Below, piece after piece: positions 6,349-23,475 of a stretch of DNA of 24,547 nt. Position 1 is the first letter of the stretch, and each line of letters starts with the position of its first letter. The stretch lies in IMG/VR virus record IMGVR_UViG_2706794689_000010. One strand, written 5' to 3'. Both the position numbers and the translations under genes were made by a program. Source of the stretch: a virus (taxonomy: Duplodnaviria > Heunggongvirae > Uroviricota > Caudoviricetes). The notes under the pieces were generated by a model, which saw only the letters and a list, made by a program, of their open reading frames with translations, was not told where the DNA came from and ran no database searches.

Positions 6349-7464
6349 TTAAATCCCTGCTTTTCTGAATACCTGTGCATCACGCTCACGGAGCTGCTTC
6401 AGCGTCAGCCATTCGCCTTTATCGGTGTAAAATTCATCTGGCGACATACCACCATCCCGAATCAGCTTTGCTCGGCTTTCCCCCACAATCTGTTTTTGTC
6501 TGGTGTAAGGCTGACGCAAAAACCATTCCCTGTAGGTTGTATCTCCGGCCACCACGCCATCCATGCTGGCCCGCTCAGCCGGGGAAATATCGCGAACATC
6601 AATACCCAGTTCCTTCGCTGATTTCAGAATGAACGTTTCCGTTGAGCGGCAGCAGAAATGAATTTTTCCCGGCCCCTGCAAATAAGGCACGCTGTGACCT
6701 ACAGGTTTATTATTCAGCGTATATTTGAGGCGATCCCTGATTCGACATTGTGGCGTAGTACGATTATCAAGCGTTGATAACCATTGCTTACCCTTAATCA
6801 AATCATTATTCGCGCTGGCAAAACTCTCACGGGCAGTAGCAGCAAGATGTCCAACCGCTGTTTTTGCAATGCTGGCCGCATTAGCCCGGCTCATCTGCAA
6901 TGCACCATCCTGAAATCCCTTACTGACATGTCCCCGAATTTTTCTTGCGATCTGCTCATTGGTATCCCCCAGCAAAAAACCCTGACGCACTGTATTTGTT
7001 ATGCGTCTGAGCCGATCCGCCTCAAGATCTGAGGCCCACTCACTGAGCAGTCGTCCCTGGAATGGTCGCGCCATTGCAGCGGCATAAAGTGCATCAGGAG
7101 AGATACCAACCAGAGGGTGAACATCAGCAACAAAATCAGGTAGCATAGAATCAAACAGACTTAACTGATAACCAGCCTCATAAATTGCCAGCTCGTTCAG
7201 CTCTCCGGAGAGACTGGTAAACATGCTGTTAATAGCAGTGCGGTTAACCTCTCTGACGCTCGCCAGAAGTGACTCCAGGCGCTTAACGGTAAAACTACCT
7301 GGATCGAGGCTGTCCAGTGCTATCAGCAGGCGAGCAGTAAGTTCCGCATCGCTGTCATTCAGTATTTTCACCATTCTGGCAGCCACGCCAGTGCTATAGC
7401 GGGATATCCAGACTGCATGAGCAATTGATTCATCACGCAGCCGTTCATTCACGGTTTGCATCAT
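6349..7464 (-). CDS. phage Mu F-like minor head (head morphogenesis) protein
   Basis: 371 aa; contains STLDNRTTPQCRIRDRLKY, typical of the Mu gpF / SPP1 gp7 family; directly follows the portal gene with a 20-nt overlap. Confidence 0.75.
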   Translation of the reverse strand: MMQTVNERLRDESIAHAVWISRYSTGVAARMVKILNDSDAELTARLLIALDSLDPGSFTVKRLESLLASVREVNRTAINSMFTSLSGELNELAIYEAGYQLSLFDSMLPDFVADVHPLVGISPDALYAAAMARPFQGRLLSEWASDLEADRLRRITNTVRQGFLLGDTNEQIARKIRGHVSKGFQDGALQMSRANAASIAKTAVGHLAATARESFASANNDLIKGKQWLSTLDNRTTPQCRIRDRLKYTLNNKPVGHSVPYLQGPGKIHFCCRSTETFILKSAKELGIDVRDISPAERASMDGVVAGDTTYREWFLRQPYTRQKQIVGESRAKLIRDGGMSPDEFYTDKGEWLTLKQLRERDAQVFRKAGI

Positions 7465-8851
7465 TGATTTCCATCAGCATTACACTCTGATTTTTTAATT
7501 CATCGATCACTTCCTCTGGACGGGAATCCTGATCGATAAATTTCAACGCCTGCAACACCCGAACCGCATCAATCTGACGTATATCACCGCCCTGACGCAA
7601 TGACTGAACAGCCAGCGCGGAGGATGAGTCAAACACCTGGGCAGATACATCCAGTTCAGTGCGCACATCCACATTGCCACCGCAACTCTCTCCGATCCAT
7701 TCCGCCATTATCTGGAGAATATTATCGAGGGCATCTTCGAGGGAGTTCGCCATTGTATAAAGCGGCGAGTTTTCCTGCATTCGCTCTTCATTAGTCTGAT
7801 CAACAGATTTGGTGGATGTATTTTCAGCACGCAGAAGTTTAGCGCCGGCATGACGCATCTGATTTTCCAGCTTCTCAAGTGATGTTTCGCCAGATTCTAT
7901 CGCTGCGCCACTATGTTCAACATATTCGAGGCCATTTTTTGTTCTGTCCTCAAAAATCGTAGCGGTGGATGCACCAACCGTCAGTTCTTCATTCCTGTCC
8001 AGCCCGTAGGCCACCAGCAATGGAACGCGGGCAACATGAAGAATATTGTCCTGCTCGCTCTGGCTTTGCCAGTGCTTGATATTCAGCAAGCCAAGATTAA
8101 GCAATGGCGGTGTACCACGCATAAATCCTGTTTTCTTCGTGTACAGTGTTACCAGAGGAATATCATCACGGCTGGTATTCCATGACTCATGAAGCGTCCA
8201 GACAGATTCGCCATTAGTGCCTTCGCTACGTCGATAAATTTCAACTCGACGGGGCATAATATGGCGGATCTGCTCCACCTTCTTCTGCCCGAAATCATCA
8301 CCATCAATAATGATGACCTCTTTTATACGCAAATCAGTGAGAACAACTTTCCCTTTTTCAACTTTCGATTTCCATCCAATAACCTGGCGTGGATTCAGCA
8401 TCGTAACGTACGGACGACCACCGGTCGCGTTTTCATCGGCTTTTGTCCGAATCTCTTTCATATCCGTTCGTGGATAGTCCACCAGCGCATGTGCCACACC
8501 ATACTGAAATGCGAGGCTGAAAAATTGCTGCGCCCACACATCCAGTCGGCTCCCCTCCATGTCGATATTTTCTGCATATTCCCTGATTTTTGCCGGCGTT
8601 TCCTCACTCAATACTGTCGGCTCTGCAAATATGCGCCCAATATTTTGCTTGATGCTTTCTTCATACACAGGAAGTAGCGTAGCCACAGACAGGCGTTTTT
8701 TATAAGCGTCTTCATCTTCGTTAGGCCATTTTGGGAGATAATTTTCCCCCTGCCTGCGCATTTCAAGCGTACCGCCCATCAGTGCGTCGTTAATATCCCA
8801 CGCCTCCAGCATATCGTTATAGTCGAGGTTGGGTGTTGATATATCAGCCAT
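7445..8851 (-). CDS. portal protein
   Basis: 468 aa, acidic; starts 3 nt after the TerL stop; size and position (TerL - portal - MuF) are canonical. Confidence 0.75.
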   Translation of the reverse strand: MADISTPNLDYNDMLEAWDINDALMGGTLEMRRQGENYLPKWPNEDEDAYKKRLSVATLLPVYEESIKQNIGRIFAEPTVLSEETPAKIREYAENIDMEGSRLDVWAQQFFSLAFQYGVAHALVDYPRTDMKEIRTKADENATGGRPYVTMLNPRQVIGWKSKVEKGKVVLTDLRIKEVIIIDGDDFGQKKVEQIRHIMPRRVEIYRRSEGTNGESVWTLHESWNTSRDDIPLVTLYTKKTGFMRGTPPLLNLGLLNIKHWQSQSEQDNILHVARVPLLVAYGLDRNEELTVGASTATIFEDRTKNGLEYVEHSGAAIESGETSLEKLENQMRHAGAKLLRAENTSTKSVDQTNEERMQENSPLYTMANSLEDALDNILQIMAEWIGESCGGNVDVRTELDVSAQVFDSSSALAVQSLRQGGDIRQIDAVRVLQALKFIDQDSRPEEVIDELKNQSVMLMEINDANRE

Positions 8852-8853
8852 AA

Positions 8854-10164
8854 TTAAATCCGAAGTGATGTGACTCTTCCGGTCGGTTTGACAATAGGGA
8901 ATTGCTTAACGATGAAATAACCTCCGGCATCATTCGGGTGATCATTGCCAGATTTTTTATCAGGCTCCCCCTTCTCATCCCAGACCTGTTGCTCCAGAGA
9001 TTCGGCATATAACGGGCAACGCTTCACATTAACTTTATAGCGACGCTCACCATTGGCATTGCAGAACATTGCATTCATTGAGTTAACGCGATCTTTTACT
9101 GGCGGGTTCGAGCTGTTCACCACAACGTTAAAACCAGCCTGCTTAAGCTGGGCTATATCCGTCGTACTTGCGTTACTTGATTTTCTGGAATCCCCGGAAG
9201 CATCTGGATAAATATAAATTTCCCTCACTTTCCGGTAATCATTCCCATCATACAGCCAGAAGCGTTCTTTAATGATGCGGATCATATCCGGCGTATCGTA
9301 GGCATTGATGATTTCAGTTACCGCACATGGAAGCCCCAAACGCAGCACATGGACGATTCCCGCCATCTTTCCAACGTTAAAATCCATCCCAATATAAATC
9401 GGCTCCCCTGGCTGCTCCACTTCTTCGCAATTATTCAGTTTCCGGTCAAACTGATGGTAAACAGTACCACTTGTCAGGTTAGTAAACTGTCCTCGAAGAT
9501 AGGCTTTAATCAGCTCTGGAGGGTATGATTCAAGAAGCGAAGGAATGTAATCTGCTGGCAGGTTCTTTTCATTATCGAAAGTAGATGCCTGCACCAGACC
9601 ATACAGTGAGGCCAGCTCTGTTTTTTCACGCACGGCTTTAACAAACTGCTCGTAGACAAATTTGAATCCTTCCGGCGTGGTTGTAACGTCAATACCGTTG
9701 CGAAGTCCATCAATCTTATAACGCATACGTGCAATTATCTTGCGCCACGCCGTTCTGGCTTTTTCCTTCGGCAAAATGTCCAGTTCATCCACCAACGCAT
9801 TACCAATTTTGAAACCGACGATCGTTTGTGGCTTCTCCATCGATCTGCAGATAGTGGTTCCCCGATACTGGCGTCCGTAATAAAAGTGAACCTCTTTATT
9901 TCCCTCATTAATTTTTACGTTCAATCCCCAGTCAGCAGCAACTTCTTCCACTGTAGGGTAAAAAATATCGCGAATTTGGGGATACGTTGGCGCAAAATAT
10001 CCCTGATTTATACCTGGATGCTCCCAAATCCCCTTGCATATGCCGCCACACCCAACCCATGTTTTGCCCGAGCCAAAACCAGCAATATAGGCTTTAAATT
10101 TATGGGGCATTGAAAGAAATCGCGCCTGAGGCACATTAAGCGTCGGAGAGATCATCTTCATCAC
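8854..10164 (-). CDS. terminase large subunit
   Basis: 436 aa with N-terminal Walker A P-loop (AYIAGFGSGKTWVG) and acidic C-terminal nuclease-like region (DHPNDAGGYF); overlaps TerS end. Confidence 0.85.
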   Translation of the reverse strand: MMKMISPTLNVPQARFLSMPHKFKAYIAGFGSGKTWVGCGGICKGIWEHPGINQGYFAPTYPQIRDIFYPTVEEVAADWGLNVKINEGNKEVHFYYGRQYRGTTICRSMEKPQTIVGFKIGNALVDELDILPKEKARTAWRKIIARMRYKIDGLRNGIDVTTTPEGFKFVYEQFVKAVREKTELASLYGLVQASTFDNEKNLPADYIPSLLESYPPELIKAYLRGQFTNLTSGTVYHQFDRKLNNCEEVEQPGEPIYIGMDFNVGKMAGIVHVLRLGLPCAVTEIINAYDTPDMIRIIKERFWLYDGNDYRKVREIYIYPDASGDSRKSSNASTTDIAQLKQAGFNVVVNSSNPPVKDRVNSMNAMFCNANGERRYKVNVKRCPLYAESLEQQVWDEKGEPDKKSGNDHPNDAGGYFIVKQFPIVKPTGRVTSLRI

Positions 10165-13279: not shown

Positions 13280-14632
13280 TTAGGAGCGCCAAAAAAAACC
13301 TGAAAACAATATAATAACAGGATAAATTTCAAGGCGACCAAGAATCATAGCTATGCACATTAAATATTTTGCAATGTCATTAAGCACTCCGAATGACGAT
13401 GCAGTAGCCCCAAAACCTAATCCCATATTATTAATACATGCAGCCACTGTTGCAAATGATGTAAGAAAATCATATCCCATACCATTTAACACCAGTATAA
13501 AAAACACCGTGAAGAGAGTATAAAGAAAAAAGAAACTCCATACAGACCTCATTACACGATCTGTAACTATCTTCCCTCCTACATTTACACTCAACAACGC
13601 TCTGGGATGAGAAAGCTGATTTATCTCGTGTTTGCTTTGTTTGAAAAGTATAAGAAATCGAAGTGACTTAATTCCACCACAGGTTGAACCTATACATCCC
13701 CCAAAGAAACTTGACAACAGCAAAAACACTATCGTGTGCGTGGGCCAGTTTGCATAATCCTGCGTAGCTAAACCATTATCAGTGAGCATGGAGCTGGCAA
13801 GAAAAAACGAATGAATAAAACTTCCATGCAAGTCATACATACCTATATGCCAGACCTGGAAAGAGGTAACAATGATCACCCCTAAGGCTATTAACAGAAA
13901 GAAACGAAGTTCAATATCTCTGATTAAAGGTTTTATCGTTTTTCTGCTAATAACAATATACCAAAGAGTGAAGTTGAAAGCCGATAGCAGGGAAAAAGAA
14001 CCAGCCACCAGCTCAACCAAATAGTTATTAAAATATCCGATACTCTCGCTATGAGTTGAGAAACCACCAAGCGAAACTGTGGAAATCCCGTGACAAATAG
14101 CATCAAACAAAGGCATTCCTGCAAGTCTATAACAGACAATACAAGCAATACCTAATAAAGAATAAGTTATCCACAGTGTCCGTGACGTATCGGCCAGGCG
14201 GGGAGTGAGTTTGTCATCCTTAAATGGCCCCGGCATTTCTGACTGATAAAGCTTTGCACCACCAATACCCAATAATGGCAATACTGCAACCGCCAGAACA
14301 ATAACTCCTAAACCACCTATAAAATTTAACTGTGACCGATAGTACAAATATGCCCGAGGTAATGAACTAACATCATCAATTACAGTTGCTCCTGTTGTTG
14401 TTATTCCAGAAACCCCTTCAAACAGAGCATCAATGAACGTTAAATTAAGTTCTGAGTCAATCCATAAAGGGAATGCACTAATAACAGAAAACAAAATCCA
14501 AAACATTACAATTATAATAAACCCATCACGGGTACGTAATTGAATGCCAGATTTCTTAGTTGTATACCACGCTCCGCCACCAATGCAAAAAAATATAACG
14601 AAAGTTATAAAGAAAACGAACAGGCTTTTTTC
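13280..14632 (-). CDS. trkG: Trk-system K+ uptake protein TrkG/TrkH family (N-terminus in N block 14633-14885)
   Basis: Polytopic membrane protein with repeated pore-loop glycine motifs (SGITTTGATV, GGLGVIVLAVAVLPLLGIGGAKLYQSEMPGP, GGFSTH, FGGCIGSTCGGIKSLRFLILFKQ) typical of TrkH/TrkG; A/T-rich codon usage; sits directly downstream of Rz/Rz1 as trkG does in Rac. Confidence 0.8.
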   Translation of the reverse strand, partial: EKSLFVFFITFVIFFCIGGGAWYTTKKSGIQLRTRDGFIIIVMFWILFSVISAFPLWIDSELNLTFIDALFEGVSGITTTGATVIDDVSSLPRAYLYYRSQLNFIGGLGVIVLAVAVLPLLGIGGAKLYQSEMPGPFKDDKLTPRLADTSRTLWITYSLLGIACIVCYRLAGMPLFDAICHGISTVSLGGFSTHSESIGYFNNYLVELVAGSFSLLSAFNFTLWYIVISRKTIKPLIRDIELRFFLLIALGVIIVTSFQVWHIGMYDLHGSFIHSFFLASSMLTDNGLATQDYANWPTHTIVFLLLSSFFGGCIGSTCGGIKSLRFLILFKQSKHEINQLSHPRALLSVNVGGKIVTDRVMRSVWSFFFLYTLFTVFFILVLNGMGYDFLTSFATVAACINNMGLGFGATASSFGVLNDIAKYLMCIAMILGRLEIYPVIILFSGFFWRS

Positions 14633-14886
14633 NNNNNNNNNNNNNNNNNNNNNNNNNNNNNNNNNNNNNNNNNNNNNNNNNNNNNNNNNNNNNNNNNNNN
14701 NNNNNNNNNNNNNNNNNNNNNNNNNNNNNNNNNNNNNNNNNNNNNNNNNNNNNNNNNNNNNNNNNNNNNNNNNNNNNNNNNNNNNNNNNNNNNNNNNNNN
14801 NNNNNNNNNNNNNNNNNNNNNNNNNNNNNNNNNNNNNNNNNNNNNNNNNNNNNNNNNNNNNNNNNNNNNNNNNNNNNNNNNNNNNT

Positions 14887-15351
14887 TTACTTTAAACACT
14901 GCTCGGTTATGTATTGCTGAGCACCTTCAAGTTGGGCCTGCATCATTACCAGTCGTTCCCGGAGGGTGAAATAATCCCGTTCAGCGGTGTCTGCCAGTCG
15001 GGGGGAGGCTGCATTATCCACGCCGGAGGCGGTGGTGGCTTCACGCACTGACTGACAGACTGCTTTGATGTGCAACCGACGACGACCAGCGGCAACATCA
15101 TCACGCAGAGCATCATTTTCAGCTTTCGCATCAGCTAACTCCTTCGTGTATTTTGCATCGAGCGCAGCAACATCACGCTGACGCATCTGCATGTCAGTAA
15201 TTGCCGCGTTCGCCAGCTTCAGTTCTCTGGCATTTTTGTCGCGCTGGGCTTTGTAGGTAATGGCGTTATCACGGTAATGATTAACAGCCCATGACAGGCA
15301 GACGATGATGCAGATAACCAGAGCGGAGATAATCGCGGTTACTCTGTTCAT
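14887..15351 (-). CDS. Rz: Rz i-spanin
   Basis: [68 protein letters not shown]... is near-identical to lambda Rz as recalled; N-terminal TM segment; start overlaps the endolysin stop. Confidence 0.9.
14946..15131 (-). CDS. Rz1: Rz1 o-spanin lipoprotein (embedded in Rz, +1 frame)
   Basis: [57 protein letters not shown]: lipobox VVGC plus proline-rich stretch, matching lambda Rz1. Confidence 0.85.
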
Positions 15352-15845
15352 TGCTGACCCCACAAACAGATTTCACGCTCAATCTCACGACGAGTCATGA
15401 GACCTTTCCATTGCTTACCGCCAGCATATGTCCAGCGACGTAGCTGATCACATGCGCCTTTGATATCGCCCTGGTTTATTTTGCGAAGAAGCGTCGATGT
15501 TCTGAAATTACCAGCACCCACGTTGTAAACGAACGAGTAAAGAGCGCCGCGCGTTGTTTCCGGTATATCGACTTTGATGTACGGGTTAATTTGTCTGGCG
15601 ACAGTGGCAAGGTCTTTATTCAAGAGTGTTTTGCATTCTGCTTTGGTATACGTTTTACCGAGCATGATGTCTTTTCCTGTATGCCCGTGACATACAGTCC
15701 ATACACCAACAATATCTTTGTATGGTATGTAGCTGACACCTTCCAGACCATCGTTACCACTTGGGCCAGTGATTAACACTGATGCTATAGCAATTGCTCC
15801 GCCACCAATAGCAGCAGCAACGACTTTTCGTAATGATGGAGGCAT
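15348..15845 (-). CDS. R: SAR endolysin (phage 21 R-type lysozyme)
   Basis: [44 protein letters not shown]...: Gly/Ala-rich N-terminal signal-arrest-release segment followed by a lysozyme domain; start overlaps holin stop. Confidence 0.9.
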
Positions 15846-17271: not shown

Positions 17272-17801
17272 ACAGCGAATCAGATCAAATAAAACGCACA
17301 TTTGTTAACATTTACACAAAGTCTGCGTGGGATATTCTGAAAGAATATCCATAATGTGGAGAGAATCTATTGAAGTGCATGGTGCCGGGTGCCTCCCGGT
17401 GAACAAAATGTTCGTGATACCTGTCGGCGACAGAAAAGGTTAATGGTATCACCCCACCGCACAGGGGGATTCACCATGCAGGAGTTTTCTTAGCAAACTC
17501 ACTGCGCGCCCGGCAACTCCCAACCACATAAAATGCGGAGTTTGTGGCATTTATGCATATAACTCGCAGGAATTATCTTAAAAAACTGATGTCGATCCGG
17601 ATTAAAAAGAAGCAGGTCATCATCAGATGACTGGAAAAAAGGAAAACAAAAAATACTCATCATACAGTTTTGATTGCAGGGATGAGCCTGCTATGCACAA
17701 TATGCAGAATATAAGCAAGATAAAAATATGCAGGCATATTATTTCGGATCTTGTTATTAACACAACCTTTTTAATAATCATTTGGCATACAATAAACCAG
17801 C

Positions 17802-20258: not shown

Positions 20259-20300
20259 TTGACATAACCCTCCAAAAGATGCATTTTTAATGCATGTTTT
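20259..20300 (+). promoter_or_regulatory. promoter (-35 TTGACA at 20259-20264) with overlapping NsrR-type inverted-repeat operator
   Basis: AAGATGCATTT-T-TAATGCATGTT (20276-20298), core ATGCATT-ttt-AATGCAT, resembles the remembered NsrR consensus; ends 15 nt upstream of the yeaR-like start codon. Confidence 0.45.
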
Positions 20301-20313
20301 GGAGGAGGTGGTT

Positions 20314-20652
20314 ATGACACACAAGAGAATTCCTAAAGATTGGGTAATCAAACGCTCAACTCCGTTCTTCACAAAAGAGAACGTACCTTCAGCGTTATTA
20401 ACACATCATAATACAGCAGCAGGTGTTTTTGGGCAGTTGTGCGTAATGGAAGGCACTGTAACATATTATGGTTTTACTGATGAGAATGCTACTGAACCGG
20501 AGATAAAAGTAGTCATTAATGCTGGCGCTTTTGCAACAAGCCCACCACAATACTGGCACCGTGTTGAACTAAGCGATGATGCTCAGTTTAATATTAACTT
20601 TTGGGTCGCTCCAGACTTTTCGGGCGAAAAAGTCTATAGCACCAAAAAATAG
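20314..20652 (+). CDS. YeaR-like protein (DUF1971, TehB C-terminal-domain family)
   Basis: GGAGGAGG RBS 5 nt upstream; MTHKRIPKDWVIKRSTPFFTKENVPSALLTHHNTAAGVFGQLCVMEGTVTYYGFTDENATEPEIKVVINAGAFATSPPQYWHRVELSDDAQFNINFWVAPDF parallels remembered E. coli YeaR; only substantial plus-strand gene in the window. Confidence 0.6.
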   Translation: MTHKRIPKDWVIKRSTPFFTKENVPSALLTHHNTAAGVFGQLCVMEGTVTYYGFTDENATEPEIKVVINAGAFATSPPQYWHRVELSDDAQFNINFWVAPDFSGEKVYSTKK

Positions 20653-21089: not shown

Positions 21090-21272
21090 CAGCACTTCCT
21101 TAAATGCTCTAAGTCAGAAACAAGCCAACATTTTAGTCCGCTTTGAGCGATCTGCAGACATTGCTAGCAGCCTTCTGTGTGAATTCTCAGGGAGCAGGTC
21201 GGCATAGCATCACGTTGAGGCTCTTACCCTACTTGTTCACACCAACCCTAACTCCACAGACTGATTCATAAA

Positions 21273-22274
21273 TTAGTAATCTGCGTGTTTCGCACTTTTC
21301 AGAAATGCTTTCATATTTTCATTAGGTCGCTCAATTTCGAAGTTACTTCCATATAACTCTTGTAATTTTGGCCATAACTTACTTAATAACCCTCTCCTGC
21401 GATAAAATGGATGTATCCAAACGGTAGATAGGTACGGAGAATTTGCATTTGAATTGTTTATTGTGACCAGCCCAACTAAACATTGTCGATAACCACTATT
21501 ATCCATTGATTGTATTTCTTCGACGAATGGATACGCGATTACATCAGTCCAACCATGATCGGTTGTATCCCATTGCATTCCGTCATGACATTCCTTCGAC
21601 TGATAGCGGCGTAAAGCTACACACGCGAGCTTTTGCCAATCTGGAGAATTAATTGTGATCTCTTCATCGTATGACGCGCCTATTGGAGCGGGTATTGGTC
21701 TGATTAATCCAGCATGGCATTCATCATAGAACTTCATGTTTCCCTCAGAAACGTTGTGTACGTTGGGTTGCTCCATGTGTGCGCCATTCAAAAATAGCTC
21801 TGATAGTAGTGTATCTACACTGTAATCTTTATTGATTATTGTCGGCTTAGAGTTTTTCTTATTAAGGCCGCGAGTAACGATTTTTTGATCAATGTTAACA
21901 ACATGGAATAATCCGTCGGGGAGGCTAGCGAACCACGATGGGGCATCGGACCAGAATAGCATGCCTTTTGTACTTCTTAAGAGTTTAATTAAGTTAATAC
22001 AAGCTTCTTCACTAGTCTTGCCGTTGATGCGAAGTATGTTAGGACTAAAGTAATATTCATCCATATCAGGGAATGCAGCTTCGCAAAACTCCTGTACATA
22101 ATTTAGCACCTGGATTCTACAGAGATCATCATAGCTGGTAATAACTAAGGGGGTATCTTCATTACTATTATGATTATCAATAATGCAATCTATAGCGAGA
22201 CTTACTGCTTTGCGTATCACTTCAGTTGAATCTAACGACTCTAAAAATTTTGTCTTTCGTGTGCGAATATCCAT
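21273..22274 (-). CDS. two-domain protein: unknown N-terminal domain plus C-terminal GNAT-fold acetyltransferase-like domain
   Basis: 333 aa; C-terminal CLVGLVTINNSNANSPYLSTVWIHPFYRRRGLLSKLWPKLQELYGSNFEIERPNENMKAFLKS has the GNAT motif-A pattern (beta strand, then R/Q-x-x-G-x-G/A-type loop RRRGLLSKL); A/T-rich; starts 15 nt after the upstream gene stop. Confidence 0.55.
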   Translation of the reverse strand: MDIRTRKTKFLESLDSTEVIRKAVSLAIDCIIDNHNSNEDTPLVITSYDDLCRIQVLNYVQEFCEAAFPDMDEYYFSPNILRINGKTSEEACINLIKLLRSTKGMLFWSDAPSWFASLPDGLFHVVNIDQKIVTRGLNKKNSKPTIINKDYSVDTLLSELFLNGAHMEQPNVHNVSEGNMKFYDECHAGLIRPIPAPIGASYDEEITINSPDWQKLACVALRRYQSKECHDGMQWDTTDHGWTDVIAYPFVEEIQSMDNSGYRQCLVGLVTINNSNANSPYLSTVWIHPFYRRRGLLSKLWPKLQELYGSNFEIERPNENMKAFLKSAKHADY

Positions 22275-22289
22275 GTATGACCTGCGCTA

Positions 22290-23123
22290 TTAAAATTCAT
22301 GAATGAACGGTTTGTCATCTGGTTGCAAAATGGTGGTTTTATTCGTTGCTACATTTAAACTGTTGTAGAGCATAATTGCCAGGTTCGATGCATTTTCAAT
22401 CAGCGTTTCAAGATCCTGGTCTGTAATCACTACGAGGTTCCCTTCTTTATCCTTTCCACCACGATGCACTAAGTGATTTCGATTGAGGGTTGCCAATTCA
22501 ATAGCTTCTATCGGACAGTCTTTTTGTACTTTTATATCGAATGTAGCTTCATAGCGGTCGATTACCTTTTTAGTGCTATGCCAGCTTGCACTGATCAAGT
22601 GTTCCTTGATTGACCTGATTAGCTCTCCCCTAATTTTCTCGATGGGTTCACCCTTGAAAGGCAACGCAGCAATATCTTTGCTTACTTTAAATTCAGTCTT
22701 ACCTTTTTCTATACAATTGGCTATGTAGACATCATCTTTCTCTATAGAATTAATGAATAGCTCAACATAAAGCGTTTCCAAAGCTGTAATAACATTCGTG
22801 TAGAGCAAACTAAGCAAGTGGTTTTTTTGCTGTTGTTCAGTTTTATCTTTTGCAAGTTTTTTTATTTTATCGATATTATCAATGAATTTTAAATACGGAT
22901 TACCGGAAGACGTTACAGCGTCGTAGATATCATCATCGTACCAATCATCTATATTATTTGAGTTTCCAGACCAGTCAAAACATTGTGTTTGTAATTCATC
23001 TACTAATTCCTCAATATACTCAGATTTAACATATTGACCGAAGATGGATTGTAGTTCTTCGCTCGCATCATACGGCCCGCCATATATGTAAGCATAGCCA
23101 CCTTCTCTACTTTCATACGGACA
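22290..23123 (-). CDS. HEPN-like (Rx4H motif) protein, N-terminus hidden in N block 23124-23381
   Basis: Open frame from the mask edge to the stop at 22290; contains ELATLNRNHLVHRGGKDKEG (R-x4-H, HEPN-type RNase signature) within a predicted helical C-terminal region; strongly A/T-rich; same-frame stop at 23382-23384 places the start inside the mask. Confidence 0.5.
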   Translation of the reverse strand, partial: CPYESREGGYAYIYGGPYDASEELQSIFGQYVKSEYIEELVDELQTQCFDWSGNSNNIDDWYDDDIYDAVTSSGNPYLKFIDNIDKIKKLAKDKTEQQQKNHLLSLLYTNVITALETLYVELFINSIEKDDVYIANCIEKGKTEFKVSKDIAALPFKGEPIEKIRGELIRSIKEHLISASWHSTKKVIDRYEATFDIKVQKDCPIEAIELATLNRNHLVHRGGKDKEGNLVVITDQDLETLIENASNLAIMLYNSLNVATNKTTILQPDDKPFIHEF

Positions 23124-23475
23124 NNNNNNNNNNNNNNNNNNNNNNNNNNNNNNNNNNNNNNNNNNNNNNNNNNNNNNNNNNNNNNNNNNNNNNNNNNNNN
23201 NNNNNNNNNNNNNNNNNNNNNNNNNNNNNNNNNNNNNNNNNNNNNNNNNNNNNNNNNNNNNNNNNNNNNNNNNNNNNNNNNNNNNNNNNNNNNNNNNNNN
23301 NNNNNNNNNNNNNNNNNNNNNNNNNNNNNNNNNNNNNNNNNNNNNNNNNNNNNNNNNNNNNNNNNNNNNNNNNNNNNNNNNCTATTGGCACAAAGCGGAC
23401 AACCACGCTAGCTCTCCCCTGTGCCAGAAAAATGTCAATTTACATATGAACTAATGCTCTTTGATCTAGTAACGT

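Follow-up and report, generated by a model that had tools for sequence, protein, structure and literature searches.

A palindrome-bounded cassette in an Escherichia coli prophage, coding for a predicted HEPN ribonuclease and a separable GNAT-fold protein

Whether two neighbouring prophage genes form one system or are separable modules in a common cassette is the question raised by positions 21273-23123 of the viral record IMGVR_UViG_2706794689_000010 (Caudoviricetes), a stretch of 24,547 nucleotides (nt), hereafter called the window, which was identified as a Rac-like lambdoid prophage of Escherichia coli. Two co-oriented genes, here named A and B, are located there on the minus strand, separated by a spacer of exactly 15 nt (22275-22289) in which a weak Shine-Dalgarno sequence, GCAGG, is found. 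The initial annotation of this locus had regarded them as an acquired operon for a HEPN-like and a GNAT-like protein, a pairing not known to be described as a defence or toxin-antitoxin architecture, and the pair is indeed absent from PADLOC and from the literature as searchable by accessions and by the combination of HEPN and GNAT. The explanation favoured here, to which we would give about an even chance, is that of a discrete, promoter-carrying cassette moving as a unit, with A as a latent HEPN abortive-infection ribonuclease and B as a separable GNAT-fold module. The most interesting result of the analysis is that this cassette belongs to a palindrome-delimited class which spans the classical moron slots of phages as well as bacterial defence islands.

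Gene A is longer than was first supposed. The window is masked in places by 12 runs of N, each of about 250 nt, and the reading frame of A stays open from its stop codon (22290-22292) up to the run after 23123, where the initial annotation had set its limit. Unmasked identical E. coli copies (L001, L129) begin with GTG behind a GGGAG Shine-Dalgarno sequence, a start site shared by the homologues, and give a product of 320 residues, so that A in the window reaches to about 23252 (22290-23252, minus strand; codons 1-43, 23124-23252, masked, the start being deduced from these copies). Across the 277 visible residues the product is identical to WP_014639476.1. It consists of a HEPN/RES N-terminal domain 1 (NTD1; residues 26-92, 22977-23177, partly masked) followed by a HEPN domain (residues about 119-308, 22329-22898), both on the minus strand; the initial annotation missed the masked NTD1, and likewise the palindromes that bound the cassette.

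That A is a HEPN protein, as had been proposed from its R-x4-H motif, was confirmed by predicted fold, motif and family. In the AlphaFold2 model (predicted local distance difference test, pLDDT, 86.6) the domain forms the all-alpha, up-down helical bundle of HEPN proteins. The motif, R258-N-H-L-V-H263-R264, of the R-x4-6-H kind which HEPN proteins carry where the last core helix begins, was checked codon by codon (22461-22481, minus strand). When 59 homologues (25-87% identical to the first sequence) were aligned, R258, H263 and R264 fell among only 12 invariant columns, which argues that LNRNHLVHRGG is not a chance occurrence of R-x4-H; E159 and W224-H225 are invariant as well. By sequence A appears to be a member of a family known from computation, the MAE_18760/RiboL-PSP-HEPN group (PF18870, PF18735), whose architecture of NTD1 plus HEPN was catalogued in 2013 with an exemplar from Klebsiella (Anantharaman et al., 2013, PMC3710099). 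As in this computationally defined group, A has a mostly helical NTD1 of about 100 residues with a conserved W/D/P-GGP motif ahead of the HEPN domain with R-x4-H, and both are predicted to be ribonucleases of biological conflict. The survey of 2013 reports no link of the group to a GNAT gene, neither 'GNAT' nor 'acetyltransferase' being found in it (PMC3710099). PF18870 was matched by 54 of the 59 homologues (E<=0.01, best 1e-6); PF18735 was matched by 29 (best 7e-11) and not by the E. coli protein, so that membership in this case follows from transitive homology. Against PDB sequences the A profile gave chance-level matches only, and thus no solved structure. Fusions of NTD1 to other effectors, RES among them, are on record (PMC3710099), and in the protein P0117 it was found joined to a PIN-type protein.

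Gene B (21273-22274, minus strand; ATG at 22274) encodes 333 residues identical to WP_000354966.1. The GNAT-like C-terminus ascribed to it was upheld at the level of fold, which is secure: in the AlphaFold2 model (pLDDT 90.3) residues from about 190 to 333 (21276-21707, minus strand) adopt the GNAT (acyl-CoA N-acyltransferase) fold, with a beta4-alpha3-beta5-alpha4 core, a V-shaped coenzyme A (CoA) site and an end after helix alpha4, and 28 of 46 homologues matched PF00583 at E<=0.1 (best 6e-6). The segment HPFYRRRGLLSKLW was confirmed at residues 288-301; it contains a motif-A-like stretch, R292-R-R-G295-L-L297 (21384-21401, minus strand), the canonical form of which is Q/R-x-x-G-x-G/A. R292 does not vary among B homologues, G295 gives way to R, K or Q in several of them, and the motif closes with L or M, never with G or A. 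Catalysis is accordingly graded as not secure. The first 188 residues form an alpha/beta domain (21711-22274, minus strand) which the initial annotation had called an unknown domain of 170 residues, and the profile search agreed: 1.84 billion representative proteins yielded 25 matches, the significant ones being B-family proteins or fragments and the two longest (998 and 2471 residues) marginal and repetitive, and no Pfam match was obtained. The domain is thus family-specific, and B as a whole defines a small orphan family of GNAT proteins confined to mobile elements; the profile of B, too, gave only chance-level matches to PDB sequences. A possible Cys-His-Asp triad in the N-terminal domain (D29/C30, H124, D110) was dropped, since distant members do not retain D29 and C30. 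Ratios of nonsynonymous to synonymous substitution (dN/dS) of 0.12-0.21 for A and 0.20-0.42 for B indicate that both genes are functional and under purifying selection.

Several observations agree with the view that the pair is acquired cargo. Its GC content is 38.2% over 21273-23123 as compared with 45.8% in the remaining unmasked window, and in the unmasked copy L129 the values are 36% for A and 39% for B against 47-53% in the neighbouring replication and Q-region genes. The pair lies 3' of the replication and DUF1627/DUF977 genes and 5' of the DUF1367, DUF1364 and DUF1133 (Q-like) genes, hence, as had been stated, between replication and the nin/Q region. At this position, after the DUF977 gene, there is a variable prophage slot: the DUF977 gene is present in 3923 of 5426 complete E. 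coli genomes, the 2 kb of A and B at >=95% identity (megablast) in 211, and alternative cargo in the same slot comprises a DUF5677 protein, an alpha/beta hydrolase and small nin-type open reading frames, as expected of a hotspot with varying content.

The cassette itself measures about 2.27 kb (21136-23400) and is bounded by an inverted pair of 24-nt palindromes with the stem GTCCGCT-N10-AGCGGAC and two types of loop, yTGTGCCArn in type P and wTGAGCGArn in type Q. The left end is a P palindrome (23377-23400, minus strand; GTCCGCT-TTGTGCCAAT-AGCGGAC, the last 5 nt masked). At the right end lies a Q palindrome inverted relative to P (21136-21159, minus strand; on the plus strand GTCCGCT-TTGAGCGATC-TGCAGAC, with two stem mismatches), the single match to Q in the window, where 0.03 would be expected by chance. 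When copies from 10-12 unrelated contexts were aligned, homology began exactly at P, about 110 nt before the start of A, and stopped exactly at Q, whose loop read inward is TTGAGCGATC; the distance of Q from the stop codon of B ranges from 110 to 190 nt by copy and is 113 nt in both the window and L001.

Between P and gene A extends a leader (23253-23376, minus strand) which is masked in the window. In unmasked copies it shows an extended -10 element, TGTGGTA(T/C)AAT, and the Shine-Dalgarno sequence of A, kept in 10 of 12 copies in different contexts. A scan for consensus sigma-70 promoters upstream of A called none; as there is no -35 element, such a scan would miss a promoter of this kind, which became apparent through conservation in the alignment, and the cassette probably carries its own promoter. 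The masked stretch 23124-23381 is 25 nt longer than its counterpart in L001 (8768-9000), the extra bases presumably belonging to the leader and not to the coding part of A, and intergenic lengths of 192, 199 and about 224 nt occur by strain.

The same palindromes bound other cargo. In the E. coli slot the cassette with the DUF5677 gene has both palindromes and both outer flanks in common with that of A and B, and in defence islands the palindromes are found in arrays, with junctions of the form Q-(16-18 nt)-P between different cargo. A scan of IMG/VR for the exact pattern (18 specified bases) returned at least 120 stretches, where roughly 1-2 would be expected by chance. In the loci retrieved, at least 82 pairs of P and inverted Q enclose at least 57 different kinds of cargo, 0.6-4.7 kb in size and in many cases defence-like. 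Inspection by eye recognised among them a reverse transcriptase with a membrane protein, a fusion of RelA/SpoT and HEPN, a CapRel-like RelA/SpoT protein, a TIR protein with a transmembrane part, an HNH protein with an ATPase, a large NTPase, Gabija, and a B homologue with a PrrC-like candidate. The main flanking backbones are the lambdoid slot from DUF977 to hokD/DUF968 and the slot of P2-like phages between gene G and gene FI (the Z/fun position); in phage P2 itself (AF063097; palindrome at 15335-15358) P stands 60 nt past gene G and Q, in degenerate form, on the far side of fun(Z), which makes the fun(Z) moron one such cassette. For a second cargo, a 269-residue protein, two contigs share 99.7% identity over exactly the interval from palindrome to palindrome, and their flanks are without homology. 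Altogether the palindromes were recorded in the window, in L094, L096, L100 and L131, in the viral loci L140-L259 and in phage P2; the orientation of the cargo relative to P and Q varies.

As to the nature of these ends, reading them as two kinds of direct repeats was rejected, because their reverse complements reveal a single element that occurs inverted and in two loop variants. Nor were they classed as attC sites, since no GTTRRRY/RYYYAAC core was seen by eye, or as repetitive extragenic palindromic (REP) or bacterial interspersed mosaic elements, as a GTAG-type REP head is missing, or as intrinsic terminators, as there is no T-run. No integrase or transposase was linked to the cassettes in the loci examined. 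In L100 a cassette array ends in a perfect Q palindrome, and a gene for an IS110-family transposase (6650-7773) directly adjoins it, which recalls IS1111/IS110 elements that target REP sequences, attC sites or the inverted repeats of transposons. Two key papers on the P2 and P4 hotspots contain no mention of palindromes or hairpins. A publication of Nilsson and co-workers from 2004 may, to judge by its title, have glimpsed the class in P2-like phages. Likenesses exist to two known arrangements. At the accessory hotspots of lambdoid phages and at P2 Z/fun (Rousset et al., 2022), too, genes with promoters of their own replace one another at one fixed site of the phage. With integron gene cassettes the present ones share their arrays, the structured repeats between neighbouring units and a cargo rich in defence genes; the ends described here, however, consist of a full pair of inverted 24-nt palindromes that are part of the cassette, where an integron cassette has one attC split at GTTRRRY, and there is no linked intI. 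It is put forward tentatively, at clearly less than an even chance, that the HEPN-GNAT pair is one cargo of widespread, apparently little-described palindrome-delimited cassettes with promoters of their own, which are exchanged precisely at the palindromes in an integron-like shuffling of defence genes. Candidates for the mechanism of such exchange are a site-specific enzyme devoted to it, a transposase that recognises hairpins and works in trans, and Red/RecET recombination over short homologies.

How firmly A and B belong together was judged from their joint and separate occurrence. Within one enterobacterial/Aeromonas clade, with A at >=83% and B at >=73% identity, the pair is stable: the spacer measures 15 nt in every paired copy, both genes diverged together up to a synonymous distance (dS) of about 0.65, with similar dS for both in most comparisons, and among 46 metagenomic B loci every B at >=73% identity is preceded by A with the same spacer, L097 being the sole exception. 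Beyond this clade the association dissolves. Co-occurrence does not extend across the phylogenetic range of the two families, since in a pattern and tblastn scan of one genome per GTDB species B followed A in only two of 80 A loci, a contig identical to E. coli and Serratia grimesii. At identities of <=76% (the upper value from Aeromonas taiwanensis) A is solo, as in L004-L008 and dozens of distant genomes, and no neighbour family was common to three or more of the 58 full-length loci, from as many species, in which A stands alone. Conversely, A is absent from all loci with B at <=56% identity and from a Serratia locus at 62%; such solo B genes reside in an integrative and conjugative element, a Mu-like prophage and marine genomes without a recurrent partner. 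A small YunG-like open reading frame adjoins solo B homologues in two unrelated loci (L111, 25-252; L137, 6999-7445), upstream in one and downstream in the other.

Even within the paired clade each gene persists without an intact partner. In L097 A has been cleanly deleted, the cassette leader being joined to the last ~80 nt of A with B intact. In E. coli SF-173 an IS1 element sits inside B next to a DNA-identical A, the leader differing by one base, and in E. coli MB56 (L136, 179-3541) copies of ISSen4 flank an intact A on both sides, with B lacking its first ~12 codons. One of these ISSen4 copies is inserted in the leader and one in codons 12-14 of B, resulting in a composite-transposon-like structure around A alone. 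Two further E. coli proteins of 320 residues, P0147 and P0148, join the N-terminal ~120 residues of DnaC/YdaV to residues 134-333 of B, which implies a deletion of the DUF1627 and DUF977 genes, of A and of the 5' part of B. These single-gene variants, together with the solo homologues, argue against an obligate two-gene system. What remains of the proposed HEPN-GNAT system is the pairing in one clade; the claim of a novel system is weakened, since two separable modules stand side by side in one lineage only, although a clade-specific functional coupling may exist.

The surroundings of the pair are rich in defence genes. In other Enterobacterales A and B follow directly after Gabija (GajAB) in L100, lie between Eleos (LeoA/LeoBC) and GajAB in L094, follow a defence dGTPase and a methyltransferase in L101 and adjoin McrBC in L003. 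A solo A gene in a P2-like prophage of Yersinia alsatica (L005, 5392-7999) stands beside an ApeA-like HEPN gene (ApeA_NTD1 and a weak HEPN_Apea match) between P2 replication gene A on one side and ogr, portal and terminase genes on the other, i.e., in the old/tin hotspot; no P or Q palindromes are present at this locus. In a marine metagenome (L116, 6001-9313; also L115) a solo B homologue of 46% identity shares one palindrome-bounded cassette with a 754-residue AAA_13 protein. The latter resembles PrrC both by its match to that protein and by its R-x3-E...H tail, and it also matches PDC-S06, a candidate of PADLOC, which places B beside a tRNA-nuclease-type gene in two unrelated forms. Judged from such genome context an anti-phage role of the cassette is plausible.

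As a working model for A the best available, by functional analogy only, is HepS of the Salmonella prophage Gifsy-1, a solo HEPN protein which is constitutively expressed and inactive by default until a tail-tip protein activates it, whereupon tRNA anticodon loops are cut and the infection is aborted (Sargen et al., 2026, PMC13043305). Like HepS, A is a single HEPN gene in a lambdoid accessory slot between replication and late-regulation genes, lacks an inhibitory partner and is tolerated without one. The defence-rich context and this analogy favour A as a latent abortive-infection ribonuclease in which NTD1 has a sensing or regulatory part, with B as an accessory module that is separable from it. 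In detail, A would be self-contained and normally latent, NTD1 probably acting as a sensory or autoinhibitory module; its C-terminal HEPN domain would dimerise to form an active site from R258 and H263, a product of the infecting phage would switch it on, and the activated enzyme would cut tRNA or mRNA and thereby abort the infection. B would be a co-transcribed GNAT-fold acyltransferase with a family-specific N-terminal domain, most likely a second, separable module, be it an independent defence or a modulator, and not an obligate partner or antitoxin of A. The cassette would travel in one piece from one prophage slot or defence island to another, with the inverted 24-nt palindromes as its ends.

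A number of points weigh against this explanation. Both assignments to Pfam families fall just below the curated thresholds for the E. coli proteins, with 22.2 bits for A and PF18870 (cut-off 27.4) and 19.9 bits for residues 264-311 of B and PF00583 (cut-off 20.7). The position of the usual catalytic Tyr of GNAT enzymes is occupied by Leu in B and motif A is degenerate, so that B may bind CoA without transfer or be no enzyme at all. Neither protein has a significant match in PADLOC-DB v2.0.0 or NCBIfam, by which the PADLOC check proposed at the outset turned out negative; the PHROG families of both carry no function annotation, and no phenotype is on record for either. The defence-island neighbourhood amounts to guilt by association, suggestive and not proof, and the same cassette class also carries cargo unrelated to defence, such as NUDIX with HAD, an MFS transporter and a secreted repeat protein. 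With regard to separability, the one base change in the leader of SF-173 means that A might be silenced there, and the fixed 15-nt spacing through a dS of about 0.65 together with co-transcription could equally mean functional coupling within the clade.

The last of the points on separability leads to an integrated two-component defence, in which B senses infection or modifies a target or A, for instance by acetylation, A is the ribonuclease effector, and both are required. The tight operon with its conserved spacer, the co-divergence, the constant presence of the pair within the same palindrome-bounded unit and the marine B in one cassette with the candidate anticodon nuclease PDC-S06 would all fit such a system. 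It is nevertheless considered unlikely, at perhaps one chance in five, as pairing is limited to the range given above while A at <=76% and all B at <=62% are solo, neither family has a recurrent partner, and variants with one intact gene persist.

An improbability of the same order attaches to the alternative that the cassette is not directed against phages at all but is lysogenic-conversion or selfish cargo, serving in anti-defence, stress RNA turnover or acetylation of host proteins, its defence neighbours being explained by shared insertion hotspots. The non-defence cargo of the class and the missing matches to known defence models speak for it, and GNAT proteins include phage anti-defence enzymes such as AcrVA5. 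On the other side, the pair repeatedly adjoins Gabija, Eleos, dGTPase and McrBC genes, and a solo A occupies the P2 old/tin hotspot. HEPN domains with intact R-x4-H on mobile elements are, moreover, overwhelmingly conflict effectors (PMC3710099).

Toxin-antitoxin addiction, in either direction, is strongly argued against by the natural knock-outs, in which either gene is lost while its partner stays intact (L097, SF-173 with the leader change mentioned, and MB56); the toxin-antitoxin architecture considered initially was not sustained. A type VII-like arrangement, with A as a constitutive HEPN toxin neutralised by B through acetylation as MNT neutralises HepT by AMPylation, is very improbable given B::IS1 beside a DNA-identical A in SF-173, the loss of the 5' end of B to insertion sequences beside an intact A in MB56, solo A genes in 58 species without a conserved neighbour, and a toxin-first order without overlap, which is atypical; unlike in HepT/MntA, the partner is a GNAT protein and not a nucleotidyltransferase, and A has an additional N-terminal domain. 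The reverse, B as a toxin acetylating aminoacyl-tRNA like TacT or AtaT and A counteracting it, is rated the least probable of all. B shares with TacT, AtaT and KacT the GNAT fold on a mobile element, where GNAT toxins are common; those are single-domain proteins of about 170 residues with an upstream ribbon-helix-helix antitoxin, whereas B has 333 residues, a unique N-terminal domain and no such partner and is tolerated alone.

The remainder of the window is in accordance with its prophage identity. Read on the minus strand, the DUF1627/DUF977 genes are followed by A and B, DUF1971 on the opposite strand, DUF1367, DUF1364 and DUF1133 (Q-like), the small RNA STnc100, TolA-like and lysis genes, trkG, and finally terminase, portal and coat genes. 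The DUF1971 (TehB-family) gene (20290-20652, plus strand) belongs to the same variable slot and lies beyond the palindrome-bounded cassette; its flanks have 31-42% GC, and in other prophages hokD/DUF968/RusA are found at that place. STnc100 (17323-17509, minus strand), 3' of the Q-like DUF1133 gene, was recognised by Rfam with 86.6 bits (gathering score 47), and a trkG-like potassium transporter gene of the TrkH family (13280-14899, minus strand) stands between lysis and structural genes, as in Rac. Outside prophages, four of 212 matching places of A and B in E. coli are plasmid-borne, among them the 136-kb multiresistance plasmid unnamed4 of strain FDAARGOS_1280 (L128), where the cassette (7749-9988) occurs with a relBE/ydfV prophage fragment between qnrS1/ISKpn19 on one side and IS26/erm(B)/mph(A) on the other. 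A contig of 3262 nt labelled as a metagenome-assembled genome of Collinsella sp. (L002) is 100% identical to the E. coli cassette and probably represents a binning contaminant. In the collection of sequenced phages there was no DNA match and no B-like protein, the only finds being three weak A-like matches on unannotated faecal phage contigs.

If A is an abortive-infection ribonuclease, it would provide the first phenotype for the HEPN/RES-NTD1 architecture, and as NTD1 is fused to RES and PIN effectors as well, the trigger of A would generalise to those proteins. The substrate of B could reveal a new conflict mechanism based on acetylation. The palindrome pair, for its part, marks the exact ends of dozens of cargo cassettes, among them those of P2 fun(Z), Gabija, a reverse-transcriptase gene, TIR, RelA/SpoT-like and other HEPN proteins. 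It thereby bears on a question from recent work on the P2 and P4 hotspots, the rapid and clean swapping of defence loci, and provides a sequence mark by which further, new defence genes could be sought in the prophages of enterobacteria.

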